Below, piece after piece: positions 2,459-19,950 of a stretch of 20,247 bases of DNA. The notes under the pieces are model-generated. The model did not search any database, had not been told where the DNA came from, and was given only the letters and a program-made list of their open reading frames with translations. The first letter of the stretch is position 1. Each line of letters begins with the position of its first letter. Position numbers and translations under genes: made by a program. This DNA comes from Candidatus Bathyarchaeia archaeon (lineage in GTDB: Archaea; Thermoproteota; Bathyarchaeia; 40CM-2-53-6), in the NCBI GenBank assembly GCA_049513715.1, contig JBEKVV010000010.1, forward strand, positions 1 through 20,247. The letters are read 5' to 3'.

Positions 2459-2503
2459 TATGTACCGGTAATTTGGGGTTGAAATCCCCTGCCCCATCTC
2501 TGA
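2459..2503 (+). repeat. Repeat A copy 1 (45 bp dispersed direct repeat)
   Basis: TATGTACCGGTAATTTGGGGTTGAAATCCCCTGCCCCATCTCTGA; 39-42/45 identical to the other three copies. Confidence 0.95.
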
Positions 2504-2655
2504 AAGAGAAGGCTAAGTACTGTATACTGTACTACAGGATAACTTCTCAGTCCGAGAAACACGAGCGTATTCTTCCAGAGTGAGCTCAAGCGAAAAATAA
2601 AGATCCTCTTCAATGTTGGAGGCTCTGACACCTTGTATCAGCAGATCCTTCAGAT

Positions 2656-3076
2656 TTAGCGGGCTATGAGAACTGAGCATTTCGCGTGTTGGCATACGTG
2701 GTGGCTTACGCTTCCAAGCAGCACTTCTTTATGCCGCTATTTCCCCGGCTTCCCATTACAATGAGTCGTATCCGTTGTCGCTCGCGACTTTCACTATACG
2801 ATCTGCCGGATGACCTGATTCTTTGATCTTTTCCACTTTTAATCCAGCGGCTTTGACTTTCGCCTCTGCCTTTGCTAGTATGTCATTTCCATCAGTCTCA
2901 ACTACCTCAATCATCCTGCGATACGTTTGAGGATTGGCGTTAGAAATCGTAGGAACATGAACCACGTGAATTGTTCCCAGTGATGCTCCACAGGTTTTTG
3001 CCAGGAATATAGCATAATCCAAAGCTCTTTCGGCTTGGGCTGATCCGTCAACAGGAACCAAGATCTTCAAGAGCAT
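2656..3076 (-). pseudogene. Universal stress protein (UspA family) with two frameshifts
   Basis: KILVPVDGS...GHPADRIV...GYD is in the annotated frame; IVMGSRGNSGI follows in a second frame and EVLLGSVSHHVCQHAKCSVLIAR* in a third. Single-base losses near 2765 and 2729. Confidence 0.85.
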
Positions 3077-3233
3077 ATCATAACCTCGCGATAACATCAC
3101 GTCTTCGTGTATTTTACGTGTATTTCAAGTTCGCTGAGCAATTACCTATGGAATGCGAAATTTCAACATTGTATCGAGGTCTTGAGTCAAACTTTAGGAA
3201 CGAGTTCCACGAATAGGGGCGTGTGACTGGCCC

Positions 3234-4235
3234 ATGCCAACCCTCTTTGAGCCTCTGAATGCGGGACGTCTAACATTGAAGAACCGCATAGTAATGCCTC
3301 CAATGGCGAATGACTTGGCGAGTGAGGAAGGAGAAGTGTCAGAGGCTTTGATCACGCACTACAAACGACGTGCACAAGGAGTAGGACTCGTAATTGTCGA
3401 ACATTCGTATGTCTCCAGAGATGGCAAACTATCCTCCAGACAACTTGGGATCCATGACGATGCTTTGCTCAACGGCCTGGCTACTCTGGTCAAATCGATT
3501 CATGCAAATGGAACGCCCGTTTGTATCCAGATCAATCATGCAGGCCGCAAGGCTCGTAGCTCTATCTGCGGCAATCAACCGATTGGTCCCTCCGCAATAG
3601 CAGCAGGTGAATCATATGAGGTTCCAAGAGAACTGGAAGAGCATGAGATTCAGCGCCTCGTTAGGTTATTCGGTGAGGCTGCTCAACGGGCACGTAGGTC
3701 GGGCTTCGATGCTGTGGAGATTCACGGCGCACATGGTTTCCTGTTGAACCAGTTCGCATCCCCATTGAGCAACACACGAACCGACGGGTACGGAGGCTCA
3801 TTTGAGAACAGGATCCGATTCCCACTGAAAGTTGTCGAGGAGGTTAGGAGAACCGTTGAATCAGACTTTCCGCTACTCTACCGTCTAGGCGCCTACGATG
3901 GCGAAGGCGGGAGCACCATTGTCGAGTGCCAGGCTTTCGTTCGAAGACTCATAGAGCGAGGGATCAACATGGTTGACGTGTCTGGTGGACTTATCGGATC
4001 CAGACCCGAGAGCACATCGCCCCAAGGATCCTTCATTCCGTTAGCGGAAGAGATCAAGAAGGCAGTGAACGTTCCAGTTATAGGAGTTGGCGGAGTCACC
4101 GATCCTAGATTTGCCGACGAAGTGATTAGACAAGGCAAAGTGGATTTAGTTGCTGTAGGTAGAGCACTGCTCGCAGATCCAGATTGGGCACTGAAGGCAG
4201 CCAACGCATTAGGTCAGAATCCCACGCAGGCATAA
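3234..4235 (+). CDS. NADH:flavin oxidoreductase (old yellow enzyme family)
   Basis: LKNRIVMPPM, QINHAGR, GFDAVEIHGAHGFLLNQF.SP.SN.RTDGYGGSFENR, DLVAVGRALLADP. Confidence 0.95.
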   Translation: MPTLFEPLNAGRLTLKNRIVMPPMANDLASEEGEVSEALITHYKRRAQGVGLVIVEHSYVSRDGKLSSRQLGIHDDALLNGLATLVKSIHANGTPVCIQINHAGRKARSSICGNQPIGPSAIAAGESYEVPRELEEHEIQRLVRLFGEAAQRARRSGFDAVEIHGAHGFLLNQFASPLSNTRTDGYGGSFENRIRFPLKVVEEVRRTVESDFPLLYRLGAYDGEGGSTIVECQAFVRRLIERGINMVDVSGGLIGSRPESTSPQGSFIPLAEEIKKAVNVPVIGVGGVTDPRFADEVIRQGKVDLVAVGRALLADPDWALKAANALGQNPTQA

Positions 4236-4364
4236 TCAAGAAACAGACGAGAGAGACCGTGCGCTACCATCCATAACCTAACTCATTTCCCAGTTTTTCC
4301 ACGCATATTCCCAGTTGTAACACAGTAATTCCCTGTGCTAAGTAGAAAAATGCGTGACGGGGAA

Positions 4365-4381
4365 CATTGACAATGTCAATG
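4365..4381. promoter_or_regulatory. Perfect 8-1-8 palindrome, candidate protein-binding site
   Basis: CATTGACA-A-TGTCAATG in the convergent intergenic region between the OYE and LLM genes. Confidence 0.35.
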
Positions 4382-4458
4382 GGGCAAATGCAATGCAAAT
4401 GCAATCCGTTAATTGCAACACAAAGTGTTAGCCATGAGTCGAGTTGGGTTCGCTGCTG

Positions 4459-5409
4459 CTACTTGAAGCGAGGTAATACTTGTTCTCCGAACAATCTTAT
4501 TCCACTTAGATCGGTGGCTGATTCCGGAAATGACAGCATCAACCTATCCACCCCAAGGTCAACGTACTCACCAATCAGCTGAACGCATTGTTCGGGTGTT
4601 CCCGCTATACTGTGCCCTTCTATGTCTTCACCTCTAATGTCTCCGCTGCGAACCGCTCGCTCCATCTTATTCTTCACATCGGCACCGGTTCTCCCAATTA
4701 TAACGGGTCCCTGCCAAGATTTTCTCACGTCGCTGAGGCTTCTTCCAACGGAGTCGCAGTGTTTCGTGAGTATCTCGATCTTGTGCTTGTACTCGTCTGG
4801 ACTTAGGCCTATGAAATTGCATCCGTCGGCAAGCTTCGCAACGGCCCTTAACGTCAACTTCTCGCCTCCGCCACCTATCCATATCAGTGGCCTCGGTTTC
4901 TGTACCGGTTTTGGTTCGCAGACAGCTCCAGTTACGGTGTAGTATCTTCCTTGGAATGATGCGCTGTCCTCAGTCCACATCTTCTTTACTATCGTAACTG
5001 CTTCTTCGAGTCTCTGAACTCTTTCCCGGGGCTTTCCGAAAGGTATGCCATAGCTTTCATGCTCTGTCTTAGCCCAGCCCGCTCCGATGCCGAGTTCAAA
5101 TCTTCCTCCACTAATCACATCTAATGTGCTTGACATCTTGGCCAACATGGCGGGATTCCGATACGTAACGCAGAGGCACGTTACGCCTAGCTTCAATTGC
5201 TTTGTCTCCTTCGAGAGCGCAGACAGAACAGTCCACGCCTCCAAACAAGGCTCCCGTGACGGCCCAAAGAGCGGAAGTTCGAAAAGATGGTCAAAGAGCC
5301 ACCCCGAATGGAAACCTAGCTTATCAGCTTCAACCCAAACATTCCTGAGATTCTCATAACGCCCAAGCAGCCTACCCTGGGACGTTTTAACCCCAATCTC
5401 AGCCCTCAA
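4459..5409 (-). CDS. LLM-class (luciferase-like) probable F420-dependent oxidoreductase
   Basis: GFHSGWLFDH, EAWTVLSAL, YRNPAMLAKM..TLDVISGGRFELGIGAGW, PKPVQKPRPLIWIGGGGEKLTL. Start placed at TTG 5409; the ORF extends upstream to 5478. Confidence 0.92.
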   Translation of the reverse strand: MRAEIGVKTSQGRLLGRYENLRNVWVEADKLGFHSGWLFDHLFELPLFGPSREPCLEAWTVLSALSKETKQLKLGVTCLCVTYRNPAMLAKMSSTLDVISGGRFELGIGAGWAKTEHESYGIPFGKPRERVQRLEEAVTIVKKMWTEDSASFQGRYYTVTGAVCEPKPVQKPRPLIWIGGGGEKLTLRAVAKLADGCNFIGLSPDEYKHKIEILTKHCDSVGRSLSDVRKSWQGPVIIGRTGADVKNKMERAVRSGDIRGEDIEGHSIAGTPEQCVQLIGEYVDLGVDRLMLSFPESATDLSGIRLFGEQVLPRFK

Positions 5410-5601
5410 TGCGCATGCCTCAAACAGACAGGAGAGTAACTTGCAAGTAAGACATTCGCATTGTAAAGAAACACCCAATAATCGTAGATGCTGCAGAAAC
5501 GTATTCGCTCAAGGTGATGCGTCAAATGTTCGAAGTCCAACCGACCGAAGAGACGGTCCGCAAGCTCAGAAGGGCCTAAGCACTGGGAAGTTTTGTGAAC
5601 G

Positions 5602-5890
5602 TCTTTATCTTGTTGGTGATACGATTAGAGCTTTCGTGGAATCTGCTGAACACCTGTTCAATGCACGGAAAGATTCCATTGCAATCATGAAGAAGAACGA
5701 GAAACAGCAAGAGATTGCTAACTTACGAGATGAGTTCCGAGTCCTAACTGATGACGATGGAAATGCCCTTGTCAATACAGCTCTCGTCGATTTCTTCACA
5801 ACTCTCGGCGTAGGGAAACTGATAGGGTATGCGACCGTTGCTGTTTCAAGTTCTCTTCCAGAGGGTGATCTGGTTTTCATTCAACAATAG
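5602..5890 (+). CDS. Possible hypothetical protein or gene remnant
   Basis: The 3' part of ORF 5441-5890 reads protein-like (..DTIRAFVESAEHLFNARKDSIAIMKKNEKQQEIANLRDEFRVL..) and fills the gap between LLM and MFS. Start is uncertain and no family is recognised. Confidence 0.3.
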
Positions 5891-7340
5891 GAGAATGCTC
5901 GAAGAATTTCGCTCTTCCTTCCTTTGGGTTGTTCTTCGAACTTCCCCTGAGGACTGAGGGGGCAATCGCAACGAGATTGACGATTGCAAGCCAGAAATAG
6001 GCGTGGCTGAGTCCTTTCAGGAAAAGGAGTCTATCTGATTCTGATATCGCAATAGGATTTATCGCTGATATTACCTCCGTTATCGTTTGGTATGGAATCA
6101 CGGAGGTCATTATCAGCACTGCAAGATTGAGGCTAATCACAAATCCAACTTGAAAGAATGTTGCTCTCAAGGCTGAGGCGATTCCTCTTCTTTTTTCCGG
6201 GACCGAGCTCATTATCGAACTCATGTTTGGAGAGACGAACAGTCCCATGCCTGCTCCGAGAATTACCATGTAAACGAACACAAGCGACACGGGAGTTGCG
6301 ATTGTAACAGTTGAGAAAAGAAATAGGGCCACGCTTGAGAGAGCGAGTCCAGAGGTCGTGAACGGAAGATGCCCGAATTTGTCAGAAAACCTTCCGCTCA
6401 ATGGGCCGAAAGTGAGAAACGCGATGTCAAATGGGATTATCCTTATTCCCGCGTCCAGAGGACTCATGTTCAGAACAAGCTGAAAGTAAAGACTGAGGAG
6501 CAGAAGAAACGCTCCCCATGCTACTGCGTTCAGCAATTGAGCTATCACTCCCCCCGTAAATTCTCGTATCTTCAATAGCTCCAGATCAAGGAGCGGATGG
6601 CGCTGCCTAATCTCATGCACAATGAAAGTCGCAAGGGTCACCGCGCTCAAGACCAAGAGAACGTAAACTGTTAACCGTTCAGATAATCCATACGCATCAT
6701 AAGTTAGCGCCAGAAGAAAACTTGTAATCGAAATCGAGAAGGACACGAATCCGAACCAATCTACTGGAGTCTTCTTATCTAGCTTCGCTATTTCCTTGAG
6801 CCTGTGATGCGACCAGAAGGTCCCGAAAATTCCTATGGGGATGTTTACGTAGAAAAGCGCTCTCCAATCAAAGAAAGAAAGAATCAACCCACTTATTGTC
6901 AACCCAGCCATTGCGCCAAACCTGAACGCAATCTGATTTACGCCAAGAGAAAGTCCGAGCTCTTCTCTCGGAGTAGCATCGACAATCATGGCCACGCTGT
7001 TTGTGAACATCATTGCAACCCCAAGTCCCTGCAAGCCTCTCCACAGAATGAACTGGGTTGGATTCTGGGCAATGCTGGTGAGAGCTGACCCTATAGTGAA
7101 GACCGCGAAACCGAGTGTGTAAATTTTCACTCGGCCTACTATGTCCGTAACTCTTCCGATAAGAAGCAACGCAATAGCGGTGGCGAGTACGTAGGATTGT
7201 GTGAACCAAATGGCTTGCTCAACATCTGCATGCAACGCGGCAGCGACTTGAGGAAGTCCGATGATGACTATCCTCGAGTCGATCCCATCCATCAGAACTC
7301 CGACGGTAGTTACTGTTAGAACAAGCCACTTGTACTTCAC
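5877..7340 (-). CDS. MFS efflux transporter, DHA2 (EmrB/QacA-like, 14 TMS)
   Basis: DGIDSRIVIIGLP, motif A GRVTDIVGRVK, RGLQGLG, WRALFYVNIPIG, PLLDLELLK, GRFSDKFG. Confidence 0.93.
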   Translation of the reverse strand: MKYKWLVLTVTTVGVLMDGIDSRIVIIGLPQVAAALHADVEQAIWFTQSYVLATAIALLLIGRVTDIVGRVKIYTLGFAVFTIGSALTSIAQNPTQFILWRGLQGLGVAMMFTNSVAMIVDATPREELGLSLGVNQIAFRFGAMAGLTISGLILSFFDWRALFYVNIPIGIFGTFWSHHRLKEIAKLDKKTPVDWFGFVSFSISITSFLLALTYDAYGLSERLTVYVLLVLSAVTLATFIVHEIRQRHPLLDLELLKIREFTGGVIAQLLNAVAWGAFLLLLSLYFQLVLNMSPLDAGIRIIPFDIAFLTFGPLSGRFSDKFGHLPFTTSGLALSSVALFLFSTVTIATPVSLVFVYMVILGAGMGLFVSPNMSSIMSSVPEKRRGIASALRATFFQVGFVISLNLAVLIMTSVIPYQTITEVISAINPIAISESDRLLFLKGLSHAYFWLAIVNLVAIAPSVLRGSSKNNPKEGRAKFFEHSPIVE

Positions 7341-7611
7341 GTGTCATCATCTATGCGTATAGGCATCAATTTTGGGATTCAATGAACCGATTCGAACCTG
7401 AAACGGAACGCCCGTTGCCTACGTTTTGCTATTTAACCTGCCTGTTGATTTGCAACTGAACATCCGTAGAATTTTCTGGTAGTAGGTTTGGACGACACGT
7501 GGACTACGAAAGCGCGCGTGAATTAATTCGTTGGAATTGTAGTTTGTTTTAGTAGTGTAGTGCATTCAAGGAAATTGCGACTGAATTAGGCCAGTTCCAC
7601 GAATCTGTTTA

Positions 7612-7656
7612 TATGTACTGGTAAATTGGGGCTGAAATCCCCTGCCCCATCTCTGA
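7612..7656 (+). repeat. Repeat A copy 2
   Basis: TATGTACTGGTAAATTGGGGCTGAAATCCCCTGCCCCATCTCTGA. Confidence 0.95.
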
Positions 7657-7868
7657 ATACAAACTACGAGGGTTCAAACGTGGGTGCAAAGCTAACTCCC
7701 CGCACCAACTTATTGGCTCCATAGCGCGGTAGGGGACCATGTTTCCTAGTGCGCGGTATGAGTCGGGGTTTTGGTGTTTGTGATTTTTTCCTGAAAACTT
7801 GAGCAAGTGTGATCGCCGGACTCTTACGAAGTTCGCTGAGATCGACCCCAAGTACAGCGATCAGTAGA

Positions 7869-8648
7869 TCAGGGTTGTTGTGAGCCGCAACTGCCGCAGA
7901 ACCCTGCGCCTTTGGGGAGTTTCGTTCCGCAGTTCATACAGAAATGAGCGTTCGGTGTGAGTGTGGTGGGAGCCGTTTGGGTTGGCGTTAGGCTGTTTGT
8001 TGAACTTCTACTCCGCAACAGTAGGAACAGGGTAGCTAGGAAAAGCGCTATGAAGACCAGCATTAGTGAGCCAAACAAAGTTTCTGTAGTTGTGTCGGAT
8101 GTGGTTGTTGTGCTGGTCAAGATGCCGGTTATGATGACAGGAGCGGGGGTTGTCGTTTGGGTTGTATAACCCGTCGCTGTTAGGAGTGAATATGCCGTGG
8201 CGGTTGTGGTTGTTAGTTGTTGGTAGCCGTTGCTTGGATAGCAGTTTGGATAGTTGGGTTGGTTTGGGTAGCATGGGGTTGGGGGCTGATTGTAACAGCC
8301 ATAGTAGTCGCAATTCGAATAGCATCCGTAGTAACCACAGTTCGAGTTACAGCCATAGTAGTCACAATACGAAGTCGGATATGAGTGTGTACGCCTACTC
8401 CAAGTCGTACTCCAAGTTCTACTCCAAGTCCACGAACTCGATCTATGCGAATGCGTGTAACTAGGATCTTGAGCTGTATACGAAGAACTGGGATTCCACG
8501 ACGAATGCCGTGAATGTGAATACGAAGAACTCTGCGCGGATGCCGCTGTGTCTAGCACTGTACTTGCTGGAGAGAGCGGCATTAACGCGAGAAAACTAAC
8601 TGCCAAGAGCAGCCCAGAAATCGAAGCTTTCTGGTGGGCAAGGTTCAC
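7869..8648 (-). CDS. Single-pass membrane protein with low-complexity Cys/Tyr/Trp-repeat ectodomain and C-terminal zinc ribbon
   Basis: Signal peptide; Ser/His/Trp-rich segment; 3x CxYYGC; Thr-rich stalk; TM helix + RSR; C-terminal FCMNCG...FCGSCG. Confidence 0.8.
   Translation of the reverse strand: MNLAHQKASISGLLLAVSFLALMPLSPASTVLDTAASAQSSSYSHSRHSSWNPSSSYTAQDPSYTHSHRSSSWTWSRTWSTTWSRRTHSYPTSYCDYYGCNSNCGYYGCYSNCDYYGCYNQPPTPCYPNQPNYPNCYPSNGYQQLTTTTATAYSLLTATGYTTQTTTPAPVIITGILTSTTTTSDTTTETLFGSLMLVFIALFLATLFLLLRSRSSTNSLTPTQTAPTTLTPNAHFCMNCGTKLPKGAGFCGSCGSQQP
8295..8366 (-). repeat. 27-bp intragenic tandem repeat encoding CxYYGC(N/Y)SN
   Basis: Units start at 8295, 8322 and 8349 on the + strand; protein CDYYGCNSN-CGYYGCYSN-CDYYGC. 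Confidence 0.8.
8396..8431 (-). repeat. 12-bp intragenic tandem repeat x3 encoding TWS(R/T)
   Basis: TACTCCAAGTCG TACTCCAAGTTC TACTCCAAGTCC on the + strand. Confidence 0.8.
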
Positions 8649-8900
8649 GTGGCCTCATCTCAGATAAACTACGGCTTGTAGTTACCTATAATCTGGATGG
8701 ATGAACATCCACCTGTGGAAAACATGGATAACTTGAACCCAAATCATGATCTATGGTCAAGAAGAAATCAACCGACGCTTTCTACGAACGCATCAGCAAT
8801 TGGCCCCTCGTCATCAATGTGACATTTCCCGAATCCTGGCCCTCTTCAAAGCCCATGCCCTCCTCCTGATGCTTGGGCACACATGAAATTCAGGTTTCTT

Positions 8901-9494
8901 TCAGGATAAGGTGCTTAAGACCTGTTCAGTAGTCCTGAGTAGCCCGATTCTTGGAAAGATGAATTTGAGAGTTACTTCGTGCTCATCTTTGCTGCTGGCG
9001 GTCATCGCATCGGTAACAAACACTTGGTTATACCCGTACTGATATGCTTCTCTTGCCGTCGTTTCTACGCCTATGTTTGTTGAAACTCCACACAGAACTA
9101 TTGTGTCTATGCTTCTCCTCCTGAGCTGCAAATCGAGCTCAGTTCCGTAAAATGCGCCCCATTGCCTCTTGGTTATCACTATGTCCTTCTCTGTGGGCCT
9201 TATTTCTTCCACAAATTCAGCCCAGTCCGCGGGCCTCTGGCTCGAACTCCATTGAAGCTGTTGATTCGTGATGGGGTGCAGCATGTCCTTTCCATTGATA
9301 CTCGTCACATGAACCAGAAAGACCGGCATTCCAAGCTCTCTGAATCTTCTAACGAGCTTTGAGACGTTTACGATGACCTGACTGCCGGTATAAGGCTCAA
9401 GCTTTCTACCTATCGCGGCTATGCCTTTCTGAATGTCTATCACTACCAACGCTGCCTTTTTTAAATCGAGTTTCAATTCGGTCATATCGATCAT
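8901..9494 (-). CDS. Isochorismatase-family cysteine hydrolase (YecD-like)
   Basis: ALVVIDIQKG, KRQWGAFYGTELDLQLRRR, GVSTNIGVETTAREA. Confidence 0.92.
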   Translation of the reverse strand: MIDMTELKLDLKKAALVVIDIQKGIAAIGRKLEPYTGSQVIVNVSKLVRRFRELGMPVFLVHVTSINGKDMLHPITNQQLQWSSSQRPADWAEFVEEIRPTEKDIVITKRQWGAFYGTELDLQLRRRSIDTIVLCGVSTNIGVETTAREAYQYGYNQVFVTDAMTASSKDEHEVTLKFIFPRIGLLRTTEQVLSTLS

Positions 9495-9771
9495 CGTTAA
9501 CAGCGAAGTGGCATCTGCTTACGCTAAATAACAACTCTGGGGTAGAGCATAAGAAAAACTGTGGATGTTACAGAATAAAAAATGACCGAATAATATTAGT
9601 GAGGGTGAACGGGAGGATGAAATTAACTTGACAGTACCTTCGCGGCCGCTCCCAAGACCTTCTTGACCACTTCGATGTACTCCAGACGCGGCTGCATACC
9701 CGTACCCAAGCAGAAACCCAGTTTGTGCAATATCGCCACACTCAAGTTGGATGGGAAACTTTCTTGCTGTT

Positions 9772-10860
9772 TCATGGTTCGCGATGTTGTGCCATACGCG
9801 AATAAAGGCCCCCGTACAATCTATCTTTACCTACAGGATTTGCTAAGAAGGCGTGAGGAAATCCTAGGTCAATTTTGCTTGCTTCATCAAGTCGGCGAAG
9901 GTGCTCCTCCGGAATCGTTACGTCGAGGCAACTCAAGTTGTCACGTATCTGATCCAATCGGCGAGCTCCGAGTATTGGAATAATCGAACCCGGGCGCGTA
10001 CGCAGCCAGGCTAGCGCGACTTGGGATGGGCTGGAGCCAATCTGCTTGGCAACTTCTGCTACTACACGTGCTATTGCGAGATTTCGATCGTTCGCTTTCT
10101 GGCTATTGGCTGCATCTAGCCGCCTCTCAACGTGCCCTCCACTCGTCCCACCGTTTTTCGTGGCAGGTGGGGCATTGTTATACTTTCCAGTGAGCACGCC
10201 TGCTCCGAGCACCCCCCAGGGAGTCACAGTCATTCCCAGGCTACGAGCCATAGGCAGAAGATCTCGTTCGGGGGTACGTTCAATCAGACTATACTCGATT
10301 TGAAGCGCTACGAAAAGTGACCATCCGCGTAACTCGGCCAACATGTTAGCTCGACTCACAATCCATGCGGGAGTATCCGAAACACCAACGTAGAGTACTT
10401 TCCCTGACCGCACTAGATCGTCAAGCGCCCGCATGACCTCCTCAATCGGCGTCGAGAAATCCCAAGCATGCAACCAGAAAAGATCAACGTAATCCGTCCC
10501 AAGCCGCTTCAGACTTCCCTCCAGCGAACGAATCATGCTTTTGCGGTGGTTACCACCACTGTTTGGGTCACCTCTTACTGTGGGGAAGGAGTATTTTGTA
10601 GCAAGGACGAACTTGTCGCGGTCAGAACTTATCAAGCCGCCAACGATTCGCTCGCTAGTGCCATTAGTGTAACCGTTGGCTGTATCGATGAAGTTACCAC
10701 CGCGTTCCACATACGAGTTGAAGATCACTCGGCATTCTTCCTTCGAAGCACCCCAACCCCAATCCTCACCAAACGTCATGGTACCGAGGCATAATTCAGA
10801 AACACGAAGTCCACTTTGACCAAGGAAATGAAACTTCATAGTATCGGACATGCCCTTCAC
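9772..10860 (-). CDS. Aldo/keto reductase
   Basis: GLRVSELCLGTMTFG, GGNFIDTANGY, LATKY, SLKRLGTDYVDLFWLH, IPILGAR. The true start may be the ATG at 10851 or 10839. Confidence 0.95.
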   Translation of the reverse strand: MKGMSDTMKFHFLGQSGLRVSELCLGTMTFGEDWGWGASKEECRVIFNSYVERGGNFIDTANGYTNGTSERIVGGLISSDRDKFVLATKYSFPTVRGDPNSGGNHRKSMIRSLEGSLKRLGTDYVDLFWLHAWDFSTPIEEVMRALDDLVRSGKVLYVGVSDTPAWIVSRANMLAELRGWSLFVALQIEYSLIERTPERDLLPMARSLGMTVTPWGVLGAGVLTGKYNNAPPATKNGGTSGGHVERRLDAANSQKANDRNLAIARVVAEVAKQIGSSPSQVALAWLRTRPGSIIPILGARRLDQIRDNLSCLDVTIPEEHLRRLDEASKIDLGFPHAFLANPVGKDRLYGGLYSRMAQHREP

Positions 10861-11042
10861 TTGGAAAGTCGCTAAGGCTGAAATCAGGTTTGGTATAAGA
10901 AGCTGTTGAGTTAGCTCGATGGACTAGCAAAAGAAAGAATTGCAGTTGGGGAAAACTGCGAGACTCTCGTCTGTTCTAAGTTCACTTACGGTCTCAACGG
11001 TTTTTCGCATTACACAACGACGATGTCACCAACGATGTGAGA

Positions 11043-11516: not shown

Positions 11517-12668
11517 TCACAATGCGCGCCGAAACGCGATTATGGCCAATACCACCATCACCCCAGTGAAGGCTGCTATGAAAATGAAATCACCTGCAAC
11601 CGCTTGAAATCCAGCCCCCTTGTACATCAACAGCCGTAGCGCATGGACAGCGTAGGTTTCCGGATTGATTACTGAGATTTCCTTCATCCACATCGGCATT
11701 CCATCCAGCGGATATATCGCGCCGCTCGTGTAGTACAGAGTCAAATTGATTGGAAAACATGTAACCCTGTACAGATCGGCAGACGTAGATCTAACAGCGT
11801 ATGCAGTCATCATCGCGATGAGGCCCAGTGATGTCAGAAATAGGGTGAACATCGTGAGCACTATTCCTAACAGGTTTGGGCTTGGGAATATGCTCATGGG
11901 GCGAATGCCGGTCAGTACGATGGCTAATACGAACAATGCTATCGACGCGAAGAGGGCTTTGATGACACCTGAAAGCAGAACTCCGATGACGATTTCATGT
12001 TTCTTTAAAGGGGTAACTAAGTATCCCTCGATTATTCCCCTCTCTTTATCGACTACGAGTTGTACGCCGCCCGCGATGATTGAGACGAACATGATTGATT
12101 GAACAAATGTTCCCGGTGCCATGAATTCAATGTACAAGACATTTCTATATGCGTACTCCAAATCAATGGTCACGTTCGAGCTGTCTTGGGCTGATGTCTG
12201 GATTAGGGGTGATAGCTGCTGGCCTGCCTGCGCAATTTCGGATCCAATAGCGGCAGTACTCAGAGGATCAGTATTATCCAACGTCACCGTGACGAAGACT
12301 TTTGAGTTTTTAGCTAATGAATCGTCAAATCCCAAGGGAATATGCGCGATCGCCTTAACCACGCCATCGTGGAGCATTTGCTGCGCCGTATCCAAATCGG
12401 GAACGTCCATCAGCTGAAACGAATTCTGACAATTTATTCCACCGAGCTCACAGCTCTGCTCATTCCGTAAAACATCAATAAAATTTGATGAATAAGGCCC
12501 ATAACTTTCTCGAACCACCGCGATTGGCGCAAGCGTTATTGCTCCTCCAAACGCGCTCCCGAGTAAGACCAGAGTTAGTAATGGTCCAACAATGGTTGAC
12601 ATCATAAGTATTGGTTGTCTCAAGAATTTGAGGACGTCACGTAAACATATGGCTAAGCTGCCTTTCAT
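11517..12668 (-). CDS. ABC-2 type exporter permease
   Basis: N-terminal TM, extracellular domain, YIEFMAPG, DKERGIIEGYLVTP, SGAIYPL..MP.W, NPETYAV. Confidence 0.92.
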   Translation of the reverse strand: MKGSLAICLRDVLKFLRQPILMMSTIVGPLLTLVLLGSAFGGAITLAPIAVVRESYGPYSSNFIDVLRNEQSCELGGINCQNSFQLMDVPDLDTAQQMLHDGVVKAIAHIPLGFDDSLAKNSKVFVTVTLDNTDPLSTAAIGSEIAQAGQQLSPLIQTSAQDSSNVTIDLEYAYRNVLYIEFMAPGTFVQSIMFVSIIAGGVQLVVDKERGIIEGYLVTPLKKHEIVIGVLLSGVIKALFASIALFVLAIVLTGIRPMSIFPSPNLLGIVLTMFTLFLTSLGLIAMMTAYAVRSTSADLYRVTCFPINLTLYYTSGAIYPLDGMPMWMKEISVINPETYAVHALRLLMYKGAGFQAVAGDFIFIAAFTGVMVVLAIIAFRRAL

Positions 12669-13603
12669 TCCCGCAGACTCCGCCCTGTAAAATTCAGGAA
12701 TACATCATCCAATGTAAGTTCACGAAGAGTTATCGTGCGAAGCTTTCCCCCATTCGAGTCAACGAGTCCAACTATCTTTGGAACTGCTTCCGCGCCATTC
12801 TTCACTAGAATCGTTAAGCCGCCGTTTCGCCTTTTGATTTCCAGAACGAAATCGGCCCTCTCAAGAGCTTTGAGAGCGGTATCGGGAAGGGTTGAGAAGT
12901 CGGCTTCAACTATGTCACCGCCAGTAACCCTTCGCTTAAGCTCCATTGGAGATCCTAAGGCGACGATTTTGCCGCGGTCTACGATTGCGAGTCTGTCGCA
13001 GAGATTTTCCGCTTCGTCTAGGTAATGCGTCGTGATTACGAGCGTGATGCCGTGGTCTTCATGTATTCTCTTAACGTAATCCAACACGGCAGCACGAGCT
13101 TGCGGATCCAAGCCTGTGGTAGGTTCATCAAGGAATAGGACTTGAGGTTCGTGAATTAGAGCTCTCACTATTTCCAGGCGTCGTTTCATTCCGCCTGAAT
13201 AACCTGCTACAGGGATCTTGGCTCGGTCAGCTAACCCTACCACTTTGAGGAGTTCGGGTATCCGCTCTTGGCGTTGTTTGCGAGACATCCCATAATACAT
13301 CCCGTAAAGGTTCATGTTTTGCGTTGCCGACAATTCAATGTCCAACGTTGACGCCTGTGTGACAACTCCTATTCGCTCACGCACCTTGTTTGCTTCCCGC
13401 ACAATATCAGCTCCCGCGACGGAAGCTGTACCTTCTGTAGGCGACAGGACAGTTACCAACATACGTTGAAGAGTTGTCTTACCGGCACCGTTTGGCCCTA
13501 TGAGTCCGAACACTTCATGCTTGATTTCAAGATTCAAATGATCGACTGCTGTAAAGTCGCCGAATTTTCTCGTAATGCCAAAAGTCTGGACAGCTAGATC
13601 CAT
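12665..13603 (-). CDS. ABC exporter ATP-binding subunit (DrrA-like)
   Basis: Walker A GPNGAGKT, signature YSGGMKRRL, Walker B LFLDEPTTGLDP, TTHYLDEA, C-terminal TLDDVFL..TG; ATGA overlap with the permease. Start placed at MDLAVQT. Confidence 0.95.
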   Translation of the reverse strand: MDLAVQTFGITRKFGDFTAVDHLNLEIKHEVFGLIGPNGAGKTTLQRMLVTVLSPTEGTASVAGADIVREANKVRERIGVVTQASTLDIELSATQNMNLYGMYYGMSRKQRQERIPELLKVVGLADRAKIPVAGYSGGMKRRLEIVRALIHEPQVLFLDEPTTGLDPQARAAVLDYVKRIHEDHGITLVITTHYLDEAENLCDRLAIVDRGKIVALGSPMELKRRVTGGDIVEADFSTLPDTALKALERADFVLEIKRRNGGLTILVKNGAEAVPKIVGLVDSNGGKLRTITLRELTLDDVFLNFTGRSLRE

Positions 13604-13924
13604 TGGGAGTCGCCATCCGGACTGTTTTCGAGTTCCACGGGCTTTTCCTGTAAGGTTCCTTTCGTAAATCACTCAGCTTTGATGCTTCGACGCTTACTGC
13701 CTACGAATCTTGCGCAAGGAGGGAGCCGTTCTTAATGATTATGCTCTATTCTTCGTTTGTCTATTGTCTACTTGTCTACCTCTATGCCACTGGAGCAATA
13801 ACAAGCGACATCGTCGCTCCATTTACTAAACTTCGAAAGTACTTGAATGGACTGGGCTTCAACATGTTTACAATCGGTGACGAGCTGGAGATACGGTGGG
13901 GACAAAAAGAATCGTTCCACACAT

Positions 13925-14170
13925 TAGATTTCCAATAAGATTCAAGGTAAGTGGCTATTCCTATGCCGGGCGAGTAATCAGGAAAAAATATGTGTTAGGA
14001 AATCTCGTGTGGCGTCTCTATACTTTGACTGACTGACGGCTCCTGCACATTTTGCAAGCTAAAGAAGAGCAATCGACGCTGAGCGAGATTTACCGTGGTT
14101 GCAGTGAAGGAGCACCTTGCGTTTTGCAATGTGAGCTTTGATGAAATCGAGTCCTTGGTGAATAAGACCG
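13925..14170 (-). pseudogene. Dual-specificity protein phosphatase remnant
   Basis: CX5R motif VLLHCNHGKSRSASIALL (HC..RS at 14080-14106), then an in-frame TAG (14059-14061), then LAKCAGAV..; apparent frameshift near 13983-13995 into FPDYSPGIGIATYLESYW. N-terminus missing. Boundaries approximate. Confidence 0.7.
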
Positions 14171-14186
14171 CCTTGAAGAGTGGTTG

Positions 14187-14330
14187 GTTGAAGGGCAAGG
14201 CAAGGTTCGTTATGAGAACCGTGAGGAGAGAATCGAACCCGGGGACGCCATTTTGATCCCGCCCGGCGAGAAGCATCAATTTCGAGCAGGTTCAGAGGCC
14301 CTAAAGTTCCTTTGCCTAGTACCAAAATGA
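14187..14330 (+). pseudogene. Cupin domain C-terminal fragment
   Basis: VEGQGKVRYENREERIEPGDAILIPPGEKHQFRAGSEALKFLCLVPK* carries cupin motif 2; in-frame TAA at 14163-14165 upstream and motif 1 is absent. Confidence 0.75.
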
Positions 14331-14376
14331 ACTAGCCTAGGCACGACAAGCCGCATCGTTCTTGTAGGGAGTTTTG

Positions 14377-14421
14377 TATGTACCGGTAAATTGGGGCCAA
14401 AATCCCCTAACCCATCTCTGA
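14377..14421 (+). repeat. Repeat A copy 3
   Basis: TATGTACCGGTAAATTGGGGCCAAAATCCCCTAACCCATCTCTGA. Confidence 0.95.
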
Positions 14422-14463
14422 GAGATTCTTCTCTCCCAAAGCAAACAGCAACGGTTCATTTGA

Positions 14464-15171
14464 TCAAATGTATAGGTATGTGATGTTCACGGTTGCAGTT
14501 ACCTGTTGTGGGCCTGAATTTATTGGAGTAGGCGGCTTGGTTTCAGTTGTTCCTCCGTAGCTAATTGGCTGTGGCATGATACCGTAGCCGTAGTTCGTGG
14601 AAACAGACGCGACACCGACGATGACTCCGCCGAGCGCACCAACTATTCCTGATGCTTGTGAGTAAGCGTCTTGGACTGCCTTATGATACGCTTGCATTTG
14701 CAGAGTACTGTAGTTCGTATCATTGAACGTGAAGGAGATTCCGTCTATCTGATTCACCCCGGCTTTTACCACGGCGTCGATAGTCTTGCCGACATTCGGC
14801 AGATTCTCAGTTCCACTCACCAAGATTTCCACAGAGTTGACGGCGACGTATCCCACGACTTTGCTGTAATTATATGAATCATACGCGGGCGAGAGTGAGT
14901 ATCCCGTTGTCTTGACATCACTCTTGTTCACGCCCAGGGCAGACAATGAGGCGAACACGTTAGTCATTATCGCCCCATTCTGCGCCGCTGCGTTCGCTGC
15001 TGATTGATTTTGGGTTCGAACTGAAAATAGCAAGTGCGCCTCGTCGGGGTACGCTGTTACTGTTCCCGTTCCAGTGACATTGACTCTTGGTATGACGACG
15101 AAGTACAGTAGGGACGCCAAAACAACTAAGCCAACCAAACCTATCGCGACTGTACGCTTCTTCATTTGCAT
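14464..15171 (-). CDS. SIMPL domain (DUF541/YggE-like) membrane-anchored protein
   Basis: N-terminal TM anchor, VNVTGTGTV.A.PD.A, TTGYSLSP.Y, GY.A.NSV, AGVNQIDGISF, GPQQVTATVNITY. Start placed at ATG 15171 (or 15165). Confidence 0.9.
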   Translation of the reverse strand: MQMKKRTVAIGLVGLVVLASLLYFVVIPRVNVTGTGTVTAYPDEAHLLFSVRTQNQSAANAAAQNGAIMTNVFASLSALGVNKSDVKTTGYSLSPAYDSYNYSKVVGYVAVNSVEILVSGTENLPNVGKTIDAVVKAGVNQIDGISFTFNDTNYSTLQMQAYHKAVQDAYSQASGIVGALGGVIVGVASVSTNYGYGIMPQPISYGGTTETKPPTPINSGPQQVTATVNITYLYI

Positions 15172-15304
15172 CTTCAATCGCTCTGGATCATAGCTGAGGC
15201 AGGCTAATAGTCTAGACAATAGAACACAACCCCGCCGCTGTTCTATTTCGTGAACTAACGCCCCGTTCCCTTTTTCACATAGCAACTAAGACGATCAATT
15301 CTGA

Positions 15305-15359
15305 GATTCGTGTGTGTGCACACCAACTAGCGCACCAGTGCGGCAACGGAAATTGAACG
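15305..15359 (-). repeat. Repeat B copy 4
   Basis: Reverse complement CGTTCAATTTCCGTTGCCGCACTGGTGCGCTAGTTGGTGTGCACACACACGAATC resembles 20012-20052 and 1162-1181. Confidence 0.65.
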
Positions 15360-15506
15360 TGCAGGAAGTTACCGGAATAACTTACGTTTGCTTAATCAAG
15401 GTCGGCGCATTCTTGAATTGCGCGTTGCTTGCCTACATCGTTGGAATGTCAGAAGATGCCTAAACCTGGTTTACAAAGGCACAAGGATTGATGGAAGCCG
15501 AGAAGA

Positions 15507-16367
15507 ATGAGACCCCATCATCCAACTTCATTTGGTGCGAGGCTGTTGACGCCGCGGCAGAAACTGCAGTTTGCGCGGGCCTCGTTCATGAAGAAGATTG
15601 GGGGATTACGATTTGATCCAGCAGATTTTGAGATCGTTCATATGTCTGTCTCTCTTCGAGGGCTTGAGAAGGTCTTCAACGAGCTTCGGGTCGTGCATAT
15701 CAGTGATCTTCACCTTGGTCAGTGGATGTCGCCGGAGCGTTTGGCAGGTGTTGTCGGTCTCGTCAACGAGCAGTCTCCTGATATTGTGGCGATTACGGGA
15801 GACTTCGTTTCGTTTGCCGTTGACCAAGTCGCTGCCGACTTAGTAAACTCACTCTCTCAGTTATGTCCCAAAATCGTCACTTTTGCAGTGTTGGGAAATC
15901 ATGATCACTGGATGGGGGCGGAGAAGGTTCGTCGCATTCTGCGTGAGAGTAACATCATCGACCTAAGCAACGACGTTTACACGCTGCGCAGAGAAAAAGC
16001 CGCACTGCACTTTGCGGGTATCGATGATGTCATGGCCCAGGAGCATGACCTTGATCGGGTTTTGAAGAAGTTGCCATCTTCAGGCCCGGCGGTGCTGCTT
16101 GTCCACGAACCCGATTTTGCTGATGTAGCTGCGGCGACGGGTCGTTTCGTGCTGCAACTCTCCGGGCACTCGCACGGCGGCCAATTTGTGCTGCCAAAGA
16201 TTGGAACTCCCTTTCGCGGTCCTCACTTCAAGAAGTATCCTCTGGGGAGATATCAGGTGGAGGATATGGTTGTGTATACGAACCGTGGGCTTGGAACGAA
16301 CACCTTTTGGCTCCGGATTAACTGCCCTCCAGAGATCACAGTTCTGACGCTTCAGGCGGCACACTAG
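15507..16367 (+). CDS. Calcineurin-like metallophosphoesterase (YkuE/YaeI-like)
   Basis: All metal-binding motifs are present: SDLH, TGDF, GNHD, HEPD, SGHSHGGQ. Confidence 0.93.
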   Translation: MRPHHPTSFGARLLTPRQKLQFARASFMKKIGGLRFDPADFEIVHMSVSLRGLEKVFNELRVVHISDLHLGQWMSPERLAGVVGLVNEQSPDIVAITGDFVSFAVDQVAADLVNSLSQLCPKIVTFAVLGNHDHWMGAEKVRRILRESNIIDLSNDVYTLRREKAALHFAGIDDVMAQEHDLDRVLKKLPSSGPAVLLVHEPDFADVAAATGRFVLQLSGHSHGGQFVLPKIGTPFRGPHFKKYPLGRYQVEDMVVYTNRGLGTNTFWLRINCPPEITVLTLQAAH

Positions 16368-18404
16368 ATGAACCTTGAGAAACACCAAAGTCAACGCTCG
16401 ATCGCGCGCGTGCTCGTTGTTTGGATAAGCGAAGCCGTAGGACTCGTGCTCATGATACACTTCGTCCCAGGTCTGAGGGTTGATACCTGGGGAAAGGGGA
16501 TTCTGGTTGTAGGCGTGATCGCGCTGCTAAACGCGATCCTGTGGCCGATCTTGTCGAAGATTGCATTACCCTTTCTCTTCTTCACGTTTGGAATAGGCGC
16601 TTTAATCCTGAATGGCCTGATCATCTGGCTGTCAAGCCTGGCCGTTCCCGAATTTCATGTTGAAGGTTGGGCTCTGATTCTAGTACCCATCGGCATAGCA
16701 GCAATTAACACCGCGGTATCAGGCATCCTAACAGTTGACGACGACGCACGATATTTCACCGCAGTCTTGGCCCGACATGCAAAACGTTCCTCAAAGACTC
16801 ACACGACAACTAAACCGGGTGTTATCTTCTTGGAGATTGACGGCTGTTCCGAGTTCATCCTGCGTGAGGCCATGCGGAGAGGGTACATGCCCACACTTGC
16901 AGGCTGGTTGAAGACCGGCAGCCACAAGCTGCGTCAATGGGAGACCGACCTCTCCTCCCAGACAGGTGCCTCCCAAGCAGGCATTCTGCACGGCAACAAC
17001 GACAATATGCCGGCGTTTCGCTGGGTCGAGAAAGAGAACGGAAACAAGATAATCGCGTCAAACGGCTCCTCTGACGCTCCCATGATAGAGAAACGCATCT
17101 CAGACGGGAAGGGGCTACTGGCAACGAACGGAGCATCTCGCTCGAACCTCTTCTCCGGCGACGCCCAAGACGTGATCTTCACTTACAGTAAGTTCATGAA
17201 TCTAAGAGGATTCTACACGAAGGCGTGGTACTTCCTCTACTCCAATCCTTACAATTTTCCGCGAACGGTGTCGCTGTACTGCTGGGATATTCTCAACGAG
17301 CTTAGGGGTCAACTACGACAAAGGATAGGAAACGTTCAGCCGAGGATACACCGCGGCCCAGTTTACCTAGCAATGCGCGCGACAACGAACGTGTTCATGC
17401 GGGAGATAACAACGTACACGATCGTAGGCGACATCATAGCCGGCCAAGTGGATACGCTCTACGCCACTTACATGGGCTATGATGAAATTGCGCATCATAA
17501 CGGCGTGGCCGATCATGACGCTTTCCACGCATTGAGACACCTGGACAGACACTTCGCGCGCTTGGAGAAAACGACGGAGCTCTCTTCACGAAAATACAAG
17601 TTTGTAATCCTGTCAGATCATGGCCAAAGCAACGGCGCCACATTCAAGCAACGCTACGGATTAAGCCTGAAGGATCTCGTCCAGCGACTTTTGCCAGAAA
17701 CATTCATCATACACAGCCATCTTGACACGAATCAAGATCACTTTGGTCACGTCGTGACCGCACCAATTGAGAAGATTGGACAGAGGATTCTTCGCGAAAG
17801 AGGAAAGCGACTGACAAGAAGGGTCAAAGGAACACTATTCAAAGATATCGCAGAGCATCGTCCTAGCGAAACACTGGACGAGAAAGCCCCGTCCAAAACC
17901 GCTCATGTTATTGTGCTCGCGTCAGGTAATCTAGGCCTCGTGTACTTCACCGAATGGAAAGAACGCATGACGTATGAGCAATTGAACAAAGCATTCCCGG
18001 ACCTCATTCCGGGGCTAGCAAAACACGAAGGCATCGGCTTCATCCTCGTACGATCTGAAAAATACGGCGCCTTAGCAATCGGTGCCAAGGGCATATACCA
18101 CTTGGCCGATGATAGTATTGAAGGAGAGAATCCACTAGCAGATTTCGGTCCCCATGCCGCAGCTCACATCCGCCGAACTGACGGCTTCAAGTATGCCCCC
18201 GATATCCTGGTGAATAGCTTCTATGACCCTGAAAGGAATGAAGTAGCAGCTTTCGAGGAATTGATTGGCAGCCACGGAGGATTAGGAGGCAATCAGTCCA
18301 AGCCTTTCTTGATGACCCCATCAGAATGGGATTTTGATGGAACGGAGATTATCGGAGCCGAGACCCTGCACAAGGTGCTGAAAGTTCGGTTAGAGCAGTC
18401 TTGA
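16368..18404 (+). CDS. Fusion of a 4-TM 'phage holin family' (DUF360-like) domain and an alkaline phosphatase/nucleotide pyrophosphatase superfamily domain
   Basis: N-terminal LLNAILWPIL...LPF...TFG...LILNG holin-like signature; C-terminal FLEIDG, SSQTGASQ, YDEIAHH, LSDHGQ, GSHGGLGG. ATG directly follows the upstream gene's TAG. Confidence 0.88.
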   Translation: MNLEKHQSQRSIARVLVVWISEAVGLVLMIHFVPGLRVDTWGKGILVVGVIALLNAILWPILSKIALPFLFFTFGIGALILNGLIIWLSSLAVPEFHVEGWALILVPIGIAAINTAVSGILTVDDDARYFTAVLARHAKRSSKTHTTTKPGVIFLEIDGCSEFILREAMRRGYMPTLAGWLKTGSHKLRQWETDLSSQTGASQAGILHGNNDNMPAFRWVEKENGNKIIASNGSSDAPMIEKRISDGKGLLATNGASRSNLFSGDAQDVIFTYSKFMNLRGFYTKAWYFLYSNPYNFPRTVSLYCWDILNELRGQLRQRIGNVQPRIHRGPVYLAMRATTNVFMREITTYTIVGDIIAGQVDTLYATYMGYDEIAHHNGVADHDAFHALRHLDRHFARLEKTTELSSRKYKFVILSDHGQSNGATFKQRYGLSLKDLVQRLLPETFIIHSHLDTNQDHFGHVVTAPIEKIGQRILRERGKRLTRRVKGTLFKDIAEHRPSETLDEKAPSKTAHVIVLASGNLGLVYFTEWKERMTYEQLNKAFPDLIPGLAKHEGIGFILVRSEKYGALAIGAKGIYHLADDSIEGENPLADFGPHAAAHIRRTDGFKYAPDILVNSFYDPERNEVAAFEELIGSHGGLGGNQSKPFLMTPSEWDFDGTEIIGAETLHKVLKVRLEQS

Positions 18405-18725
18405 GATAGGGCAGCAGTACGCTTCAACGCACCAAAGGTACCACCGCCACCAAAAGAGACGATGACGGACACAATAATTCGGTTATAATCGGATTGTGGA
18501 GGCGTTTCCTCAGTTTTCCCACAGCTAGCGACAGAGATTCCCCGTTCTGTCACTTCGGTTTCCGATTTCCCAAATGAAAGCAGCTGACATTTGGGGACGC
18601 ACACTTTCATCATCGCCACTCGTGGATGGGCTGAAGCCACCTCCTATCCCCCAAATTCCAAGACCTAGCACGGGAATCTTGTGACCACTTTATCCTAACT
18701 CTTTGAACTCCACGTCTTACGCGAC

Positions 18726-19637
18726 CTAGATTCTTGTCGTCTCGTCAAGTATTGTCATGGCTCGCCTTTCAATTTGTTTGGTGCTACCATAGTCCCCAAG
18801 CCTCGTTTTCGCGACGACGAACGACGCCACCGCAGACCCAACCGCAGCCGACCAGAGTAGATCACTTGTCCGATCCCACGTAACAAGGAAAGCTCCGAGG
18901 AGCGCGTCTCCTGCCCCGGTGGGATCATGAACGGGTGTTGCATAAACGGGAAGATTGAACATCCCGTAATCTCGTGACCACACAATCATTCCTAGTGGGC
19001 CTCTCGTCAACAGTACGATGCTAGGTCCAAGTGTGGTCAGTTTCCTGCTCGACCACCTTGCCCCGATGACTGCAGAGACCTCACTTTCTGATATCTTTAG
19101 AACTTCAATTCTCCTCAAGAGCGAGTGATCCCTCCATTTCTGAAGGTAGACATTCCCCTCCGAATCCAATTCGCGAAGATAACCCTGCGGATCCAAACCG
19201 ACCACCGAATTGCTCCTTGTTAAACGACTTGCGAGCGAGGGAGAGATCTCATGGAGTACTGGTCCTATGTGGATTGCCGAAGAGGACGGAAGCCTCAACA
19301 GGTCCTCGTCGTCGATTGGGTCACAAACCGAGGTGACTCTCATGGTTCTATTCCCGTTCAGATAGTTGATCCTGAAACAGGTAGTGTTGGAGTTTGCGAT
19401 TCGAATGCGAGAGGTCGAAATGCCGTGAGCCCGCAGCCAAGAAAGGCGCCTCTTTCCGAAATCGGAGCCCACTTTGCTGACAGCAACGGCTTTACCGCCT
19501 ACCGCAACGGCAGCCAGCCCGGCGTAGGTGCATGGGCCACCTAGCCGAGGAACTCGACCTTCACGACCAATGCGATCCAGCACAATGTGGCCAACGGTCG
19601 CCAAATCGTACTTCAAGTCGAACCCATCGATGGACAA
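18726..19637 (-). CDS. PfkB/ribokinase family carbohydrate kinase
   Basis: VGHIVLD, LGGPCTYAG, KVGSDF, DPQG, LTRGPLG, DPTGAGDALLGAF. Confidence 0.92.
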   Translation of the reverse strand: MSIDGFDLKYDLATVGHIVLDRIGREGRVPRLGGPCTYAGLAAVAVGGKAVAVSKVGSDFGKRRLSWLRAHGISTSRIRIANSNTTCFRINYLNGNRTMRVTSVCDPIDDEDLLRLPSSSAIHIGPVLHEISPSLASRLTRSNSVVGLDPQGYLRELDSEGNVYLQKWRDHSLLRRIEVLKISESEVSAVIGARWSSRKLTTLGPSIVLLTRGPLGMIVWSRDYGMFNLPVYATPVHDPTGAGDALLGAFLVTWDRTSDLLWSAAVGSAVASFVVAKTRLGDYGSTKQIERRAMTILDETTRI

Positions 19638-19905
19638 GTGTCCTAGAACTCCTACTTACGTTCTAGCAGCCCATGTCTGGCGTGACCGGGAAGAGTTCCA
19701 ACAGCACCCTATTCGGGCGACTTTCTCAAATCCATCTCGAGGCTCTGTCTCTACAAGAACGAGAACTTGGGTTCATGAGTTAAGTCAAGATAGGCTTAGT
19801 GATCGTGATTTCATTAGCAGCGAGCTTGTCGTTCGTCACAAATCGGTTATCGAGAGAAAGAAGGTTGCGTTCTCAGTGTGGGCGTCTAGCTTTGCCGGTG
19901 ACTCA

Positions 19906-19950
19906 TATGTACCGGCAAATTGGGGTCAAAATCCCCTGTCCCATCTCTGA
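19906..19950 (+). repeat. Repeat A copy 4
   Basis: TATGTACCGGCAAATTGGGGTCAAAATCCCCTGTCCCATCTCTGA. Confidence 0.95.

Follow-up and report, generated by a model that had tools for sequence, protein, structure and literature searches.

What is a 45-bp repeat doing four times, always on the same strand, between the accessory genes of an archaeal contig? The window is the whole of contig C10 (20,247 bp; JBEKVV010000010.1) of genome G000, a metagenome-assembled genome (MAG) of the Bathyarchaeia that is 99.4% complete and whose other contigs likewise carry C numbers. The DNA is present in peat and wetland sequencing runs. The initial annotation proposed that the copies may be where a cassette-array or tandem-integration system recombines in trans, and that they are unlike integron attC. 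This idea was supported: the recombinase is encoded on a different contig, and at the sites gene order is broken. What the annotation missed is that the core of the repeat, judged by its sequence, is the T arm of tRNA-Leu/Ser. This core ties the system to a known kind, the tRNA-targeting integrative elements. The repeat would be the right-hand attachment site (attR or attI type) of archaeal elements that enter the 3' ends of tRNA-Leu and tRNA-Ser genes.

All four copies lie on the forward strand. Site 1 spans 2459 to 2503, with a palindromic arm at 2463 to 2470, a left half-site at 2474 to 2484, a putative 6-bp overlap at 2485 to 2490, and a right half-site at 2491 to 2501. Site 2 spans 7612 to 7656 (arm, 7616 to 7623; putative overlap, 7638 to 7643), and site 3 spans 14377 to 14421 (arm, 14381 to 14388; putative overlap, 14403 to 14408). 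Site 4 spans 19906 to 19950 (arm, 19910 to 19917; putative overlap, 19932 to 19937). The half-sites and overlaps follow a geometry drawn from the tRNA-end repeats of self-contained elements. The coordinates and the start-to-start spacings of 5,153, 6,765, and 5,529 bp were confirmed. So were the 37 invariant positions of 45, the pairwise identities of 39 to 42 of 45, and the loss of similarity, which falls within 1 to 4 bases on either side. About 50 bases directly downstream of site 2 are similar to those of sites on C2, C6, C7, and C9. The copies are not a product of chance: a profile search of the genome retrieved 50 sites, and a weight matrix at a score of at least 12 found 0 matches on the reversed genome. 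As first reported, no recombinase or transposase family was present among the 21 window proteins scanned. The window also contains no tRNA gene.

The 50 sites were retained after weak matches (E > 0.01) were dropped, except for two degenerate copies inside arrays. Their layout is a palindromic arm followed by the T-arm core of tRNA-Leu/Ser (GGGG, 7 nt, CCCC). By right end, 35 carry CCATCTCTGA (the CTCTGA type, which includes all four window sites), 9 carry the tRNA-Leu/Ser 3' end, and 6 carry neither. A displaced tRNA 3' fragment therefore marks the right boundary in those 9 sites and not in the 35 CTCTGA sites. Neighboring sites no more than 30 kb apart lie on one strand in 34 of 36 pairs. 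The sites are intergenic, with 1 of 50 inside an open reading frame (ORF) of at least 120 aa against 230 of 300 random positions. The modules between them range from 24 bp to 23.8 kb, with a median of 1.6 kb, and total at least 116 kb of G000; the module size of 5 to 7 kb given earlier describes the window only. A co-oriented Leu or Ser tRNA stands no more than 70 kb upstream of 18 sites; of the remainder, 30 are no farther than 35 kb from the end of a contig, leaving 2 in neither position. Only four tRNA-Leu 3' ends were found in G000; a fifth may sit in an assembly gap and could anchor the arrays at contig ends. Outside the window, the arrays carry genes for accessory metabolism, transport, and signaling. 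An HNH endonuclease gene (L203, 14649 to 15332) begins directly to the right of the site at C4:236614.

The candidate recombinase is encoded on C5. P0001, the best match to PF00589 in G000 and the one recombinase there that fits the sites, is a XerA-like tyrosine integrase of 319 aa (C5:218585-219544); each genome has one close integrase of this kind. Together with the 174-aa P0002, which is encoded upstream, it sits directly behind an intron-bearing tRNA-Leu gene. After the CCA of this tRNA comes the left arm of the repeat in reverse complement. Downstream of P0001 are 14 co-oriented sites over 60 kb. The last of these carries the exact tRNA-Leu end. The first is of the CTCTGA type, as is the first site behind the integrase at locus L103. 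No second copy or remnant of either gene was found elsewhere in G000. The catalytic residues R160, R266, and Y298 of P0001 are invariant in 29 sequences, and its nearest solved relatives are archaeal XerA structures. It scored 181.6 bits against the archaeal XerA model NF040815 (cut-off, 220) and 42.5 bits against the IntI-specific model TIGR02249 (cut-off, 265), below the cut-off in both cases. A role as the host XerA does not fit the first of these scores or the presence of P0001 in 5 of 22 genus genomes rather than all. In its predicted structure, P0002 has a long helix in addition to two short ones, and its end resembles a winged helix. It matched no Pfam family above cut-off, only unnamed Atlas clusters, and no fold at an E value of 0.001 or below; the weak fold matches were winged-helix regulators. 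P0002 is probably a DNA-binding regulator or helper. Within a 24-kb module of the C5 array are extra eIF-1A and TFB genes (L199, 18697 to 18999; L200, 8 to 421), and a copy on C2 matches the eIF-1A region at 94.5% identity.

The link between repeat and integrase was followed through the family of P0001. The comparison covered 115 integrase loci that share 40% identity or more and have sufficient DNA upstream, a set that includes the G000 locus itself (L097) and near-duplicates and is not one of independent loci. A tRNA T arm lies 540 to 760 bp upstream of the integrase in 102 of the 115. Of these, 87 have the arm and 99 have the partner gene. An intact tRNA gene with an intact tyrosine integrase at attL was present at the C5 locus and in 102 of the family loci. 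Eight displaced tRNA ends were found downstream of family integrases, and six of them carry the left arm 12 to 13 bases before TCCC, as in the window. Because the arm stands at the window's spacing before displaced tRNA ends, the repeat is tied to this integrase family. In four of those downstream repeats, identity with the tRNA begins at TCCC. That the repeat is the attachment site of the P0001 family is well supported by these comparisons, and we consider it very probable.

Two other explanations of the repeat bear on the same features. In one, it is a 3' untranslated region (UTR) RNA element, a terminator, or a cassette promoter. Every window copy does lie past the stop of a minus-strand gene, and the arm probably overlaps the promoter of the regulator-integrase pair. 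Three of the gaps first given as 43 to 213 bp hold, at 212, 42, and 124 bp, and the fourth, behind the USP gene, is 252 bp by the present ORF. Genome-wide, the position past a minus-strand stop does not persist: the nearest ORFs lie on the same and opposite strands in 26 and 23 cases on the left and in 28 and 21 on the right, which is no strand bias. Folding was no better than that of shuffles, and no Rfam match was found. The term "structured" applied to the repeat holds for a stem of 4 to 6 bp between GGGG and CCCC and for nothing more (z-scores of -1.93 to +0.55 in eight folds). An RNA or promoter role is very improbable on this evidence. Two related candidates were also rejected. The arm as an outward promoter for cassette genes was ruled out on the lack of strand bias and of a fixed distance, and an attC-like hairpin substrate was ruled out on folding.

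In the other, the 45-mer is itself a small mobile unit inserted between genes, such as a repetitive extragenic palindrome (REP), a miniature inverted-repeat transposable element, or a solo insertion sequence (IS) end, and the blocks are not units. Its boundaries are sharp on both sides with unrelated flanks, and a second tRNA-like repeat of G000 is dispersed in both orientations. Such a unit is still improbable. The 99.4%-complete genome encodes no Y1/RAYT transposase and no resolvase. No target-site duplication is shared by the sites, the best k-mers each being present in only 1 of 35. For none of 162 sites was an empty counterpart found in the DNA examined, which is a limited search space. 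The near-uniform co-orientation argues against it as well, as does the left arm, which is the attR arm of a defined integrase family. The alternatives listed in the initial annotation, namely, a REP element spread by an HUH transposase, IS ends, and a 3'-UTR RNA, found no support in these results.

How an integrase of this kind would use the site can be outlined. Insertion would be carried out by P0001 with the DNA-binding protein encoded upstream. We infer a dif-like core of 11, 6, and 11 bp whose counterpart in the tRNA would be the terminal 28 bases, which start at the 5' T stem and end with the CCA. Strand exchange would take place within the 6-bp TCCCMY. The 8-bp palindrome TACYRGTA, 3 bp outside each half in attP, may be an accessory site, probably for P0002. 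The 11-6-11 geometry is preferred because the direct repeats of self-contained elements begin at TCCC. A first geometry, with a 7-bp overlap centered between TGGGGY and RCCCCA, was dropped; both are putative. Under the 7-bp geometry, mean complementarity was 4.15 of 6 in 79 CTCTGA sites versus 3.03 in 30 tRNA-type sites.

The CTCTGA tail appears to define a second site form in the genus. In it the outer right half would have been swapped for ATCTCTGA, with the left arm, left half, overlap, and inner right bases kept. The general site form is present in 20 of 22 genus genomes and the CTCTGA tail in 12 (13 by another search pattern). Outside the genus, 4 of 378 class-sample genomes match the pattern, three with tRNA-type ends and one (G123) with the CTCTGA tail. 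On this survey, the tail is genus-specific. No CTCTGA site other than that of G123 (L374) turned up beyond the genus. The right flank of this G123 site shares 86% identity with DNA next to a G004 site, which suggests transfer between families. The 79 copies of the CTCTGA site come from many species and have a sharply bounded tail and unrelated flanks. In the DNA examined, the tail followed a tRNA-Leu/Ser T arm in 0 of 91 distinct contexts. Viral contigs gave 0 exact matches.

A circle with the CTCTGA form that entered a tRNA gene would destroy the acceptor stem and the CCA. Because this tail cannot rebuild the tRNA, we infer that the blocks land on sites already in the island. Islands would then grow by accretion of integrase-less blocks at existing sites. 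The single integrase, or an incoming element of its family, would excise and reorder the blocks in trans. The window would be a stretch of such an array, with blocks since remodeled by other insertions. That CTCTGA-bounded blocks have accreted and moved in trans is our best reading, and a modestly probable one.

The sites may instead be passive scars. Self-contained elements would have integrated serially at tRNA-Leu/Ser genes or at one old secondary target, which would be the source of the CTCTGA tail, and their integrases would later have been lost. Homology-driven deletion and duplication in identical stretches of 20 to 25 bp would have done the rest, with no dedicated cassette site. Accretion of this type, as in cis-mobilizable elements (CIMEs), is well documented in other systems (excerpts of PMC5704250, PMC3146451, and 10.1101/2020.12.28.424599). 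Nine of the 50 sites are plain tRNA-end attR copies, and G016 contains single mini-islands with an attL arm remnant, one attR, and no integrase. Serial integration, however, leaves a tRNA end and an inner arm at each joint. Arm-like sequence lies downstream of just 1 of the 50 sites, at two mismatches, which marks a departure from simple accretion; one full joint of a target-gene end and the next attL arm is present in G006. Integrase and regulator remnants are absent from G000. A single old target would also need repeated reuse to give the non-tRNA tail of the 79 sites. Scars are a less likely explanation of the sites.

Gene order around the sites bears on both accretion in trans and scars. 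Flanks were compared for 167 sites. The second repeat family was masked first, since several of the 26 one-sided pairs found before masking came from it alone. After masking, 17 pairs share one abutting flank and 0 share both. One of the 17 is a trivial 24-bp tandem, and several involve the same module. The clearest case is a 777-bp block (C1:892373-893150) that encodes a MazE-type antitoxin and a PIN toxin (VapBC). It matches G007 at 82.6%, both ends are within 3 bp of sites, and the outer flanks are unrelated. The block also matches G014, with one site. By its boundaries, this block has moved from site to site. In G018, two sites and a 1,040-bp insert stand where G021 has one site. The insert contains a prephenate dehydratase-ACT segment (L191, 11411 to 11884) that resembles a chromosomal gene of G000 and may be a captured piece of a housekeeping gene. 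Two duplications within G000 end at a site. In the VapBC and C3/C7 pairs, it is the left flank that arm variants accompany. Leaders of about 100 bp are shared behind different tRNA-Leu genes and do not extend into shared modules. In genus-wide searches with the other arrays (13 candidates per genome scored), no relative's match spans a site from flank to flank.

Several observations weigh against accretion and movement in trans. The integrase has the sparse occurrence in the genus given above (5 of 22 genomes). It was not found in three site-bearing genomes that are 96 to 100% complete, and their sites lie mostly behind Leu tRNAs. The model leaves unexplained how new DNA arrives behind a CTCTGA tail. 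The VapBC block was the sole end-to-end match among 86 modules tested; the rarity with which whole modules are shared is what passive scars would give. A 97%-identical glycosyltransferase block is ragged-ended in two of three genomes. The left anchor of the G018/G021 comparison is just 61 bp, and sites of a different att family likewise lie at the ends of the duplicated C1/C5 block. In two of the closest pairs (C5:175034/C6:4992 and G018/G021), the three variable loop bases follow the right flank. A crossover in TCCCMY does not predict that pattern, which favors scars. Within the window, no module is present whole in any of the 22 same-genus genomes. The window genes reach 95% identity in relatives, as single genes or pairs whose matches end at gene edges, and a site lies within 1.5 kb at just 1 of 29 homologous loci. 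The 5- to 7-kb window blocks were not found as units in these genomes and are at most putative mobile cassettes.

Sequencing reads weigh in the same direction. Read depth is flat across the window modules in four runs. A circle was not demonstrated, and most joints at the repeats are full-depth multi-mapping, which was excluded from the evidence. One minor contig, from one of the four runs (X8; depth of 20.4 versus about 450), has alignment ends at 14408 and 19917. Between repeat positions 21 and 33, where the putative overlap lies, it changes over from the left half of a site-3-type copy to the right half of site 4. The two alignment ends are the exact mismatch limits of a site-3/site-4 hybrid. 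The contig is a hint of such a hybrid and no more. Excision, other recombination, and a strain allele are indistinguishable here, because the short side of the contig, 29 letters long, falls within the repeat and also occurs at a C6 site.

The window modules encode unrelated accessory functions. Module 1 (2504 to 7611) contains four genes, for a USP (2756 to 3100, minus strand), a flavin mononucleotide (FMN) oxidoreductase (3234 to 4235, plus strand), a luciferase-like monooxygenase (4459 to 5478, minus strand), and an MFS exporter (5877 to 7340, minus strand). The USP gene is probably frameshifted, because a relative's match to it extends to 2642. Within 2642 to 3100, the shift seems to lie near 2727 to 2756, and one minor contig has an extra base at 2727. 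Module 2 (7657 to 14376) has all of its genes on the minus strand. It encodes a Zn-ribbon membrane protein (7869 to 8648), an isochorismatase (8901 to 9494), an aldo-keto reductase (9772 to 10860), an ABC-2 pair (11517 to 13672), and a fragment of a dual-specificity phosphatase (14059 to 14325). Three 27-bp repeats in the Zn-ribbon gene (8292 to 8373) encode a Cys/Tyr-rich low-complexity stretch. Module 3 (14422 to 19905) contains four genes. They encode a SIMPL protein (14464 to 15285, minus strand), a metallophosphoesterase (15507 to 16367, plus strand), a holin-like/phosphodiesterase fusion (16368 to 18404, plus strand), and a PfkB kinase (18726 to 19637, minus strand). The first 127 bp (1 to 127) and the last 205 bp (20043 to 20247) of the window are common to the two ends of the 896-kb contig C1, and both C1 ends likewise bear co-oriented sites of the main family. 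From these shared ends, the window is probably part of one longer array, flanked on both sides by copies of a collapsed repeat.

Other att-like families are present nearby. The second repeat family resembles a tRNA 3' half with a CA-rich tail and is found in the window at 170 to 187, 1152 to 1230, 2090 to 2137, and 20008 to 20067. G000 contains 49 copies in both orientations, and these often abut a main site back to back. Twenty-three of the 49 are within 5 kb of a main-family site, in zones that make up 7.5% of the genome. A third family consists of att-like copies, around G000, of the end of a tRNA on C3. Four of these have a main-family site nearby, at a distance of about 56 bp or 3 kb. Directly behind that tRNA is a 470-aa weak match to tyrosine recombinases (L214, 4142 to 5554; C3:166142-167554). 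A fourth family has Ser-tRNA-type copies with a different left arm. It was found in G000 (C2:54896, C2:50936, and C3:153913) and in G014 and G018 (L278, L298, and L355).

How does this system compare with those already known? No description of these sites was found in the literature searched, which did not cover subscription papers or preprint supplements, and the same search returned no publication on integron cassettes of Bathyarchaeia. The available text on pipolins (PMC11551731) held nothing relevant to the sites. Tandem att-bounded islands without an integrase are already known as CIMEs, Dehalococcoides ssrA islands, and tycheposon islands. In the excerpted account of CIMEs (PMC5704250), integrase-less units keep their att sites and are stacked at one target gene with chimeric internal sites between them. 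They are described there as decayed elements with joints that contain the target-gene end. The G000 units likewise keep flanking att sites without an integrase, as in the VapBC block and the absence of P0001 and P0002 remnants. They differ in that the right half at 35 of the 50 joints is a dedicated, non-tRNA one, inner arms and integrase remnants are lacking there, and the host is archaeal.

The ssrA islands of Dehalococcoides, in the portion of PMC3146451 at hand, are numerous islands that lie in tandem no more than 100 kb from a single RNA gene, with a conserved motif just upstream of each repeat. Fifteen lack integration modules. The tandem islands, the motif before the repeat, and the islands without integration modules are shared with G000. 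In contrast, the Dehalococcoides islands are described with a serine recombinase and a tmRNA target, and every boundary is ssrA or its direct repeat. Tycheposon islands of Prochlorococcus (excerpts of 10.1101/2020.12.28.424599) are tRNA-anchored, have partial tRNAs scattered inside, and hold elements that can jump to internal segments. Anchoring and internal partial tRNAs are common to both systems. The tycheposons, however, carry their own integrases and integrase fragments remain, and these excerpts describe no second, non-tRNA site type.

Among archaea, att sites and integrase classes are reviewed in PMC8371274, with the class II (pNOB8/XerA-like) tRNA integrases and cryptic integrated elements as the closest comparison, and arrays that arise through re-use of one site are noted in PMC6563490. 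SNJ2 has co-transcribed coiled-coil and winged helix-turn-helix helper proteins (PMC5861418). In the parts of these accounts available, the class II elements also have an intact tyrosine integrase beside attL in a tRNA gene, and P0002 may act like the SNJ2 helpers. Dozens of integrase-less blocks served by one integrase are not described in those parts.

Integrons were compared by the criteria in the available text of 10.1101/2022.02.06.479319, which includes archaeal integrons. As in an integron, one tyrosine recombinase heads a co-oriented array of sites, with 14 behind P0001 on C5. Orphan arrays elsewhere, like CALINs, and a toxin-antitoxin cassette are further likenesses to what that source describes. 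Unlike integrons, the system has no IntI domain and no common gene orientation, its blocks reach 24 kb, and its sites come from a tRNA T arm. An attC R-box pair within 80 bp was present in 0 of the 50 sites, and no folded bottom strand was found at the z-scores given above. We propose, tentatively, that one Bathyarchaeia genus has independently evolved an analogue of the integron. The attR of a tRNA element would have become the entry site, and a dedicated cassette site (arm, T-arm core, and ATCTCTGA) would be barred from tRNA genes. One XerA-like integrase, serving several arrays in trans, would capture, excise, and reorder the integrase-less blocks.

Should the CTCTGA sites prove to be substrates, they would show how a platform for cassettes can arise from a tRNA-targeting island of the ordinary kind. 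For integrons themselves, the origin of the cassette platform from such an island is, to our knowledge, unclear. The same reading would explain the movement of accessory metabolism among abundant peat archaea. If the sites are merely scars, they are a clear but ordinary case of island accretion. Names can be put to the enzyme, its helper, the three types of site, and the predicted overlap of 6 bp, which makes the question testable in vitro. Relative to the known accretion islands, the sequences suggest that what is new here is the 35 of 50 sites with a genus-specific tail unable to rebuild a tRNA.

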